Positions 20,164 through 21,756 of a DNA stretch of 48,141 nucleotides are shown in pieces. Origin of the DNA: a virus. Its lineage: Duplodnaviria; Heunggongvirae; Uroviricota; Caudoviricetes. Location: IMG/VR virus record IMGVR_UViG_2675903658_000004. The stretch is one strand, 5' to 3'. Positions within the stretch are counted from its first letter, which is position 1. The number at the start of each line of letters is the position of its first letter. Below the pieces are notes generated by a model that saw only the letters and a program-made list of their open reading frames with translations, was not told where the DNA came from and did not search any database. The translations under genes and the position numbers were made by a program.

Positions 20164-20205
20164 ATATGTTGCGGAGGCAAAGCCTCCCGCAACATATCTT
20201 TTTCG
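20164..20205 (+). terminator. rho-independent terminator downstream of Q (tR'-like)
   Basis: Long inverted repeat ATATGTTGCGGAGGC / GCCTCCCGCAACATAT followed by CTTTTT; lies between Q and the convergent porin gene. Confidence 0.5.
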
Positions 20206-20214
20206 TAAGTCAGA

Positions 20215-21297
20215 TTAGAACTGATAAACCAGACCTACAGCGACGATGTCGTCGGTATCAATACCAGCTGTTTTGGTAAACTTACTATCGTCAATTAAGT
20301 TGATTTTGTAATCAACAAAAGTGGACATGTTTTTATTAAAGTAGTAAGTAGCACCGACATCGACATACTTGACTAAGTCTCGGTCACCATGAACACCAAG
20401 GTCTTTACCTTTTGACTGAAGGTAAGCAACAGATGGACGCAGACCGAAGTCAAACTGATATTGTGCTACTGCTTCAAAGTTTTGTGCTTTGTTTGCAATA
20501 TGGTTATTACCAAAAACGGTCATATTCTGAGTTTCAGAATATGTGGTAGCCAGATAGATATTGTTCGCATCATATTTCAGGCCTGCAGCCCATACTTCCG
20601 CATTTTTGCCGGAGGCATTGAATTTGCTCTTACCATAGGCGACCTGACCGTCAGTGCGATCTGATTTAGCATAGGTTGCACCCACGCCGAATCCTTCATA
20701 CTCATAAGTAGTGGAGAAACCGAAACCATCACCATTGGCTTCAGTTACGTCAGTGCGGTCATTTTTACCCTGATACTGAGCAGCAAAGTTCAGGCCATCG
20801 ACCAGACCAAAGAAGTCGTTGTTACGATAAGTTGCAACACCAGTAGTGCGACCAGTCATGAACACATCTGTTTGGGTCCAGGTATCACCACCGAATTCTG
20901 GCAGAACGTCAGTCCACGCACCGATGTCGTATGCTACACCGTAGTTACGGCCGTAATCGATTGAGCCGTAATCACCAAATTTCAGGCCTGCAAATGCAAG
21001 ACGGGTTTTGTCTTTGGAAGAACCTTGAGATTCAGCACGGTTGCCTTTGAATTCATATTCCCACTGACCGAAACCAGTCAGTTGATCGTTGATTTGGGTT
21101 TCACCTTTGAAGCCAAGACGGGCATAAGTAGTATCACCATCATCTGCATCATTAGAGGAGAAGTAGTGCTTGGCATTAACTTTCCCGTATAGATCCAGCT
21201 TGTTACTGTCTTTATTATAAATTTCAGCTGCCTGAGCAGACATCGCCATCAGTACTGATGCAGCTACAGCAGAAATTGCCACTGTTAATTTTTTCAT
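20215..21297 (-). CDS. OmpC/OmpF-family outer-membrane porin (NmpC/Lc-like prophage porin)
   Basis: Signal peptide [23 protein letters not shown], aromatic-rich beta-strand pattern, C-terminal ...VGLVYQF; ATG at 21297; same position as nmpC in DLP12. Confidence 0.9.
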
Positions 21298-21723
21298 TGT
21301 ACGCCCTTTTTTTGAACTTTTATTAAAAAATGATGTCACTGCGCGATAAATATTCATCTAATCAATGTGATTATTTCAAGATGTAAGTTTTAGTTTCTCA
21401 TTTAATTTGTGAAGTAGATCTCTATTTTTATCTGAACCTTTTCTATCTAATCCTATTCATGGCTCTTGTCTGAACAAAAATAAATCTATTAGCTAATTTA
21501 TATTAATGGCACTTATTTATAAGTGCTCTATAATTCTTTAGCTTAATTTAAACAAACTAAAAATAACATCGGAAATTATTAACTGGTTATTTGTTGAAGT
21601 TTTCTTATGCATTTGTGGTGGTGTTTTGAACACTCGGTGGCATTCTCACAAATATCATTTAGTAGTTTACGTACGTAAAAAATTGGTTATGCTGTTAAGA
21701 GTGGTTACTTCGTCACACAGCTT

Positions 21724-21756
21724 AAACCCGCCGTCGAGCGGGTTTTTCCATTTTTT
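21724..21756 (+). terminator. terminator-like hairpin upstream of the lysis cassette
   Basis: Perfect 8-bp stem AAACCCGC/GCGGGTTT with a 6-nt loop, followed by TTCCATTTTTT. Confidence 0.35.

Follow-up and report, generated by a model that had tools for sequence, protein, structure and literature searches.

Among the cases of lysogenic conversion that affect the outer membrane, the phage porin and ipeX have long been established. Porin genes of the Lc/NmpC family have been described as lc in phage PA-2 (GenBank J02580), and as nmpC in the prophage DLP12 (qsr') of Escherichia coli K-12 and in the P1-like phages P7 and JL22. Reviews describe IpeX as 167 nucleotides (nt) long, located on DLP12 and made within the porin transcript, and the literature credits it with post-transcriptional repression of host OmpC and OmpF. 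Here we describe a locus of this kind in a 48,141-nt stretch of DNA from a virus of the Caudoviricetes (IMG/VR record IMGVR_UViG_2675903658_000004), called the window below, whose porin gene lies between the antiterminator gene Q and the lysis genes. The gene is an intact form of the classical Lc/NmpC phage porin, and as the porin and ipeX are already known as a module, the locus is another intact copy and nothing new in kind. What changes is its transcriptional setting. A reading made from the sequence alone held that late transcription from pR' must cross the porin gene antisense; we consider it likely that the region is an intact lc/nmpC and ipeX module lodged between Q and the late promoter, and that late transcription starts past the porin. 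This correction bears on both annotation and experimental design.

The porin gene occupies 20215-21297 on the minus strand and encodes 360 amino acids (aa). The Pfam family Porin_1 (PF00267) is matched over the whole of its model (1-337 of 337; E value 1.9e-151; 504.7 bits against a cut-off of 23.7), and the NCBIfam profile of the OmpC subfamily scores 521 bits, over its cut-off of 484. The protein also aligns end to end with solved chains of OmpC, OmpK36, PhoE and OmpF (E about 1e-137). Residue 1 of solved mature OmpC corresponds to porin residue 24 (AEIYNKD), which leaves 21229-21297 on the minus strand as the part coding for the signal peptide, and the C-terminal ...GLVYQF is aligned as well. 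A cleavable signal peptide, the AEIYNK mature N terminus, a PEFGGD motif and a C-terminal aromatic residue (F) are all present, as is usual for a general porin; the segment LPEFGGDT aligns with the solved OmpC chains, and we take PEFGGD to be the constriction motif of loop 3. Judging from the full-length alignment to OmpC, OmpK36 and PhoE, the product would be a 16-stranded, trimeric beta-barrel diffusion channel. A listed open reading frame at 20215-21357 (minus strand) consists of the porin gene and an upstream extension to an earlier in-frame ATG; the RefSeq porin starts at 21297, which we take as the more sensible start. The sequence-only reading had called a complete OmpC/OmpF-family porin on the minus strand with an AT-rich upstream region of its own, and both calls hold, the GC fraction being 0.245-0.285 upstream of the gene (21300-21700) against 0.41-0.49 within it. 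Sequence comparison found no frameshifts or stops in the porin.

The protein is 92% identical in aa to Lc of PA-2, 94% to the porin of phage ev099 and 83% to NmpC of P7; relative to these three, the substitutions and the only indels are concentrated in a few variable segments. Its closeness to Lc, its slot between Q and S-R-Rz and its opposite orientation place the gene in the Lc/NmpC group. With PA-2 the window is collinear over 2.7 kb at 90.6% nucleotide identity, from Rz, R and S through the AT-rich region and the porin to the 3' untranslated region (3'UTR), with the same orientation relative to the lysis genes and a spacer that is 95% identical. It differs from PA-2 in a porin with five residues fewer and with substitutions in a few variable segments, and in that the window copy sits in a prophage disrupted by insertion sequences (IS). 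The likeness to nmpC of DLP12 that had been suggested earlier is confirmed: the two are collinear in the order rusA-ylcG-quuD, reversed porin, essD-rrrD-rzpD, with identities of 97% for Q, 95-97% for the spacer, 99% for the late-promoter segment described below and 98% for the holin. The porin coding sequence is less alike (87%), and in DLP12 an IS5 copy interrupts nmpC close to the 3' end of the gene and parts the porin promoter from ipeX, whereas the window gene is unbroken. In P7 and JL22 the porin is 81-83% identical in aa and about 60 nt of the 5' leader are in common, but the gene occupies another genomic slot, between odaA/hxr and ssb (P7 2438-3617), and lacks the ipeX-like 3'UTR, the AT-rich region and any common sequence further upstream. 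As these P1-like phages show, the porin reading frame and ipeX are separable.

By homology, the spacer between Q and the porin is the predicted ipeX region, which the sequence-only reading had missed. This stretch of 188 nt (20027-20214) reaches from the Q stop to the porin stop; its identity to the quuD-nmpC spacer of DLP12 is 97%, and all seven aligned loci have kept it. Across six phages and prophages it is 93-95% identical, against 87-91% for the porin coding sequence, and on the porin strand it folds with -53.6 kcal/mol (z = -7.1). DLP12 homology, fold and conservation together point to a 3'UTR of about 165 nt on the porin mRNA (20050..20214, minus strand). It would end at an intrinsic terminator found by terminator scan at 20049..20076 on the same strand, 33 nt from the Q stop codon; its sequence is GGGGCGTTTCCACGCCCC and then ATTTTTAATA, with a stem (20076-20059) of 7 pairs, 6 of them GC, and a tail of AUUUUU. 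The region therefore shows the hallmarks of IpeX, in that it adjoins the porin stop on the porin strand, matches DLP12, is structured and ends in a rho-independent terminator. In 2006 Castillo-Keller and co-workers reportedly located ipeX in untranslated sequence past the stop codon of nmpC, and reportedly also found that an identical sequence in the lc 3'UTR accounts for the loss of OmpC in PA-2 lysogens. A search of 19000-23500 against Rfam (E of at most 1) returned no IpeX or late-leader family, only two matches at chance level, sau-19 on the hairpin at 20164-20205 and a plant miRNA, both of which were set aside. With a single genome sampled for each species, an exact-pattern scan with the 28-nt ipeX stem gave matches in E. 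coli and on one 442-nt contig only, and at that sampling it carries no information on origin. The contig, NZ_VJYK02000722.1, belongs to a Streptomyces alkaliterrae assembly and is probably contamination of that assembly.

The evidence on late transcription begins in Q itself. Q, of the QuuD type, lies at 19643..20026 on the plus strand (PF06530, E 7.7e-54; quuD in the annotation of strain CFT073). Its product is 78% identical in aa to Q of VT2-Sakai, diverging only at the C terminus, and the first 333 nt of the gene are 75-77% identical to Q of the Stx phages, with nucleotide homology ending at about 19975-20002, short of the 3' end. The remainder of the match is found on the far side of the porin. 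In a sensitive search with the spacer between porin and holin, 21663-21747 matched some 300 Stx phages at about 78% identity, and in those phages the matching segment is the very 3' end of the Q gene together with the next 70 nt or so. For this stretch the GenBank record of 933W, which notes its Q as similar to that of DLP12, gives pR' (20666-20693), qut (20707-20714) and a 'possible rho-independent terminator' (20726-20748). The window accordingly has a pR' homologue with a qut/pause element at 21666..21714 on the plus strand: a -35 hexamer TTTACG (21666-21671), a 16-nt spacer, a -10 hexamer TATGCT (21688-21693) and, by alignment to VT2-Sakai and 933W, a predicted late +1 at 21700 and a qut homologue at 21707-21714. 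Terminator scan and 933W homology agree on a pR'-proximal intrinsic terminator at 21724..21756 (plus strand), with a stem at 21724-21745 (+25 to +46) and a T-rich tail to 21756 (+57). In VT2-Sakai the promoter scan calls the same hexamers (TTTACG-16-TATCAT), and the initial transcribed sequence AGAGTGGTTAC is conserved between the window and the Stx phages. A single copy of the composite pR' motif is present in the window, where chance would give 0. The 110-nt segment that carries it is also the best conserved non-coding stretch from Q to the holin (97-99%), against 83-94% for its neighbours and 85-88% for the adjacent AT-rich core. Hexamers, pause/qut sequence and terminator are thus each homologous to an annotated or mapped example, as in a late promoter of the 933W/DLP12 type. 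Independent, indirect support comes from a fragment of DLP12 from K-12 called the 'SRRz promoter region', which begins inside nmpC, ends in essD and shows promoter activity with a lux reporter.

Mapped transcript ends are available for one of these homologues. In the Sakai Stx2a phage, the PR' start obtained by differential RNA sequencing (dRNA-seq) and the tR' 3' end obtained by Term-seq lie 258 nt apart (Sy et al.). After conversion, the start falls 7 nt past the -10 hexamer and the 3' end on the last T of the T-run of the second hairpin. The conversion takes the published numbers to refer to an older genome version, offset by 142 nt from NC_002695.2, as judged from the stx2A start. Reading the same coordinates in current RefSeq numbering was rejected, since the start would then fall inside Q and the 3' end would have no hairpin.

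The only homologue of pR', qut and its terminator (21666-21756) therefore lies on the holin side of the porin, and late transcription need not cross the porin at all, contrary to what had been proposed. The porin block (about 20003-21662) most probably lies outside the late operon, between Q and its cognate pR', as far as homology can place it; late-operon morons such as stx or bor, in contrast, lie downstream of pR'. Late RNA would start at about 21700, meet the terminator at 21724-21756 and, with Q, read on into the holin while leaving the porin untouched, the Q-dependent read-through at 21666-21714 being predicted from the homology. The predicted +1 is 186 nt before the holin ATG, and the scan found no other terminator-like site between 21756 and the holin. 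Beyond it follow the S21-type holin (21886-22101; PF04971; essD in CFT073), lysozyme (22101-22598; PF00959; rrrD) and Rz (~22583/22595-23056; PF03245; rzpD), all on the plus strand. Cargo can thus sit between Q and a displaced pR' in a widespread prophage type, so that a gene found between Q and S cannot be assumed to be part of the late transcript or antisense to it.

The Stx phages 933W and VT2-Sakai resemble the window in Q (78% of aa), the -35 hexamer, the spacer length, the initial transcribed sequence and the first hairpin. They differ in that their pR' overlaps the Q stop, with tRNAs and stx downstream of it and within the late operon, whereas in the window about 1.66 kb separates Q from pR' and holds a new Q C terminus, ipeX, the porin and a control region. 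They also have a second terminator at +258, whereas by scan none is seen before the holin in the window. Phage 82 offers an approximate likeness, by description only: its pause element resembles an extended -10, GCC stands at +15-17, and the pause occurs at +25. A literature search on essDp/QDLP12 returned only unrelated matches to Q82. A different arrangement is seen in phage 1H12 (LR595850.1, 1860-2760), whose Q agrees with that of the window as far as position 20002 and is followed by a reversed gene for the lipocalin Blc in place of porin and ipeX. Cargo exchange seems to recur at a junction formed by the 3' end of Q. Phage 1H12 was considered as an 'empty site' control and proved unusable, as no pR' homologue was present within 1.5 kb of its Q.

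Two further observations concern this stretch. The distal 'CRP binding site' annotated in PA-2 (J02580, 1067-1087) corresponds to window 21700-21720, that is, to +1 to +21 of the pR' homologue and 400 nt from lc, and it probably belongs to the late promoter rather than serving lc as a CRP site. Between the terminator at 21724-21756 and the holin, an indel of 17 nt (21823-21839) divides the loci: the window, PA-2 and ev099 have these nucleotides, whereas DLP12, PhiR26_1, mEp332 and Kati lack them.

The sequence upstream of the porin suggests how the gene may be expressed. Read by eye, an extended -10 element (TGaAATAAT) at 21378-21370 would start transcription at about 21363 and give a leader of about 65 nt, so that leader and putative promoter together span 21298..21378 on the minus strand. 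The consensus scan did not call this element. Homology to nmpC of P7 starts at 21359, 62 nt upstream of the ATG, which is consistent with a leader in common, and the leader/promoter segment is 92-95% conserved; we infer the exact promoter position from these features. A CRP-like site at 21405..21425 (minus strand) is placed by alignment to PA-2, where the identical sequence is annotated as misc_binding 1363-1383 of J02580. A sigmaE-like promoter (GAACTT-N16-TCACT; 21314..21346, plus strand) can be read on the opposite strand and points to the lysis genes. Its proposed +1 at about 21346 derives from the published limits of the DLP12 reporter fragment, -121 and +650, and from the title of the source paper, which concerns RpoE regulation of the DLP12 lysis cassette. 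The forward primer of that fragment matches exactly at 21225-21244, and the reverse primer, which aligns to the holin gene through indels and one mismatch, has only an approximate place. If real, the sigmaE-like promoter would overlap the porin promoter back to back.

In a lysogen, a promoter of its own within the AT-rich region would then drive leftward transcription of the porin. Expression is described in the literature as CRP-sensitive and higher at 37 C. The product would be exported and inserted into the outer membrane as an OmpC-like general porin, and the same transcript would carry the structured 3'UTR of about 165 nt (ipeX) to its own terminator just before Q. By lowering host OmpC and OmpF post-transcriptionally, ipeX would let the phage porin partly replace the host porins, which may alter permeability, surface antigen and the display of phage and colicin receptors. 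The sequence-only reading had likewise raised a possible outer-membrane change in the lysogen, and a role in lysogenic conversion is the established view for Lc/NmpC.

The two hairpins on which the sequence-only reading relied, at 20164..20205 and 21724..21756, are both where it had placed them, and it is their assigned roles that need to change. The second is the pR'-proximal terminator described above. The first has a 15-bp stem with one bulge (20164-20197) and then five T at 20199-20203 (fold z = -3.45); its stem is kept in seven related loci, with the bulge shifted in the window. On the plus strand it is terminator-like for transcripts leaving Q, and it would stop unmodified transcripts there before they run antisense into the porin. 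Read on the minus strand, the same sequence lacks a U tail and would be the stem-loop at the 5' side of the ipeX/3'UTR RNA. The best match to the sigma-70 consensus in the region is found within the Q coding sequence (19840-19867, plus strand; TTTACA-16-TATTAT; 10 of 12 positions); if active, it might give rise, for instance, to a short plus-strand RNA with its end at 20205.

Several points weigh against the arrangement proposed here. The hexamers of the window pR' agree with the consensus at 8 of 12 positions, one mismatch worse than in 933W, and the consensus promoter scan did not call those at 21666-21693, so that the promoter assignment rests on homology. Transcripts of the Stx phages apparently pass the homologous first hairpin and reach the second terminator at +258, so that the hairpin may be an inefficient tR' here. 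The conversion of the Sakai ends depends on an older stx2A coordinate that is presumed to be correct, although both ends then fall on fitting sites. Lastly, an IS copy splits the replication gene O, and how the prophage responds to induction may then be of no consequence in this strain.

That IS copy is one of three IS3-family elements, each of 1310 bp and 100% identical, at 5268-6577 (plus), 14686-15995 (minus) and 46187-47496 (plus), with transposase reading frames of 296 aa (rve/HTH_21). The middle copy divides O into 14099-14725 and 16012-16311. The same arrangement is found in strains KE51 and HM670 (O2:H1), and the best matches are B2-type human isolates. This copy of the prophage is probably replication-defective and not inducible to full lytic growth, and the porin/ipeX unit is then effectively a host gene here.

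Two routes by which transcription could still oppose the porin are possible: read-through by N-antiterminated polymerase from pR, and the sigmaE-like promoter. In the former, transcription from the early-right operon would read past Q and the terminator at 20164-20205 on induction and produce RNA antisense to the porin, and the overlap of about 150 nt between the 3'UTRs could couple ipeX and the porin to the Q mRNA in the manner of lambda paQ. We regard this as possible but doubtful. It draws on geometry only: Q and the porin converge, each terminator lies beyond the other, and the 3'UTRs would be complementary over about 20050-20205. The homologous prophage of CFT073 is annotated with a lambda-like early region (cII, cIII, O, P and nin genes). 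However, the locus yielded neither an N gene nor a nut site, the prophage is IS-disrupted in the window, and the literature surveyed holds no report of such coupling.

A related proposal, which we hold to be improbable, would turn the same overlap, together with the sigmaE-like promoter, into a regulatory node. The abundant porin/ipeX 3'UTR made in the lysogen, antisense to the Q message over about 150 nt (20050-20205), would damp leaky late gene expression as paQ does in lambda, and transcription from the opposite side, on induction or envelope stress, would switch the porin off. If this were true, ipeX would serve lysis-lysogeny control of the phage besides its repression of host porins.

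The arrangement first proposed for this locus is that pR' directly follows Q, that the hairpin at 20164-20205 is tR', and that Q-modified polymerase crosses the porin and the second hairpin and silences the porin by collision or antisense. It has the analogy with lambda behind it, where pR' follows Q, as well as a good plus-strand hairpin with five T 140-180 nt past Q, a highly conserved spacer between Q and the porin, and weak -10-like hexamers in that spacer (TAATAT at 20089-20094 and TATAGT at 20110-20115). Against this, the consensus scan found no sigma-70-like promoter on the plus strand of the spacer (20027-20160), neither the spacer nor its 20164-20205 hairpin shows homology to the pR'/qut/tR' region of 933W, and 933W-type pR'/qut homology occurs once, at 21666-21747. 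The conservation of the spacer is explained by ipeX, and the DLP12 fragment with promoter activity for the lysis operon starts within nmpC. We therefore consider this arrangement quite unlikely, together with the identification of 20164..20205 as tR'. Least probable of all is that the porin is intact but silent, like the quiescent nmpC of some laboratory strains: nmpC of K-12 is inactive through IS5 and the literature cites porin genes described as quiescent, but here nothing is broken from the upstream region through leader and signal peptide to the reading frame, all of it identical to CFT073, whose two nmpC-annotated genes are thermoregulated and whose c1560 protein is detected in urine-grown cells, and of the 42 phage records that match the porin, 19 reach a protein identity of 99% or more.

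The expression data that bear on the module lodged between Q and pR' come from CFT073, in which the nmpC-annotated genes c1560 and c2348 were higher at 37 C than at 23 C in both mRNA and protein, and in which NmpC/c1560 protein rose 2-3.3-fold in urine-grown cells. In the CFT073 annotation, the equivalent gene position for c1560 is 32 annotated genes before sitD. From gene order and the sit locus tags, c1560 is presumably the window porin, and this presumed equivalence counts against our account in the same way as the points gathered above.

The locus is widespread. Window 19600-22200 (2.6 kb) recurs at 100% identity in prophages of E. coli CFT073, Nissle 1917 and ATCC 25922, in many other genomes and in the phages ev017 and PhiR57_1, and the porin itself is 100% identical in CFT073, Nissle and ev017. 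At least 80% of the 2.6-kb block was found in 2392 of 5426 complete E. coli genomes. The porin is labelled 'porin OmpC' in RefSeq and NmpC or OmpD in phage records. For CFT073, Nissle 1917 and similar strains, the porin and ipeX are relevant to antibiotic permeability, to serum and antigen exposure, and to the display of receptors for phages or colicins.

With regard to receptors, PA-2 uses OmpC. In the window, the C-terminal 250 aa of the tail-tip protein J (43375-44124, plus strand) are 100% identical to those of phage 21, and 55-57% identical to those of lambda and 434. The predicted receptor specificity of this prophage is thus that of phage 21 and not that of PA-2, so the receptor logic proposed for PA-2 may not carry over.

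Two neighbouring genes complete the picture. A gene for a Bor/Iss lipoprotein (23088-23381, minus strand; PF06291; iss in CFT073) lies just past Rz, also reversed, and is a second lysogenic-conversion gene nearby. Between bor/iss and the terminase genes, a small protein (23808/23862-24188, plus strand) carries a TonB C-terminal domain (TIGR01352, E 2.6e-12) behind a lipoprotein-like N terminus.

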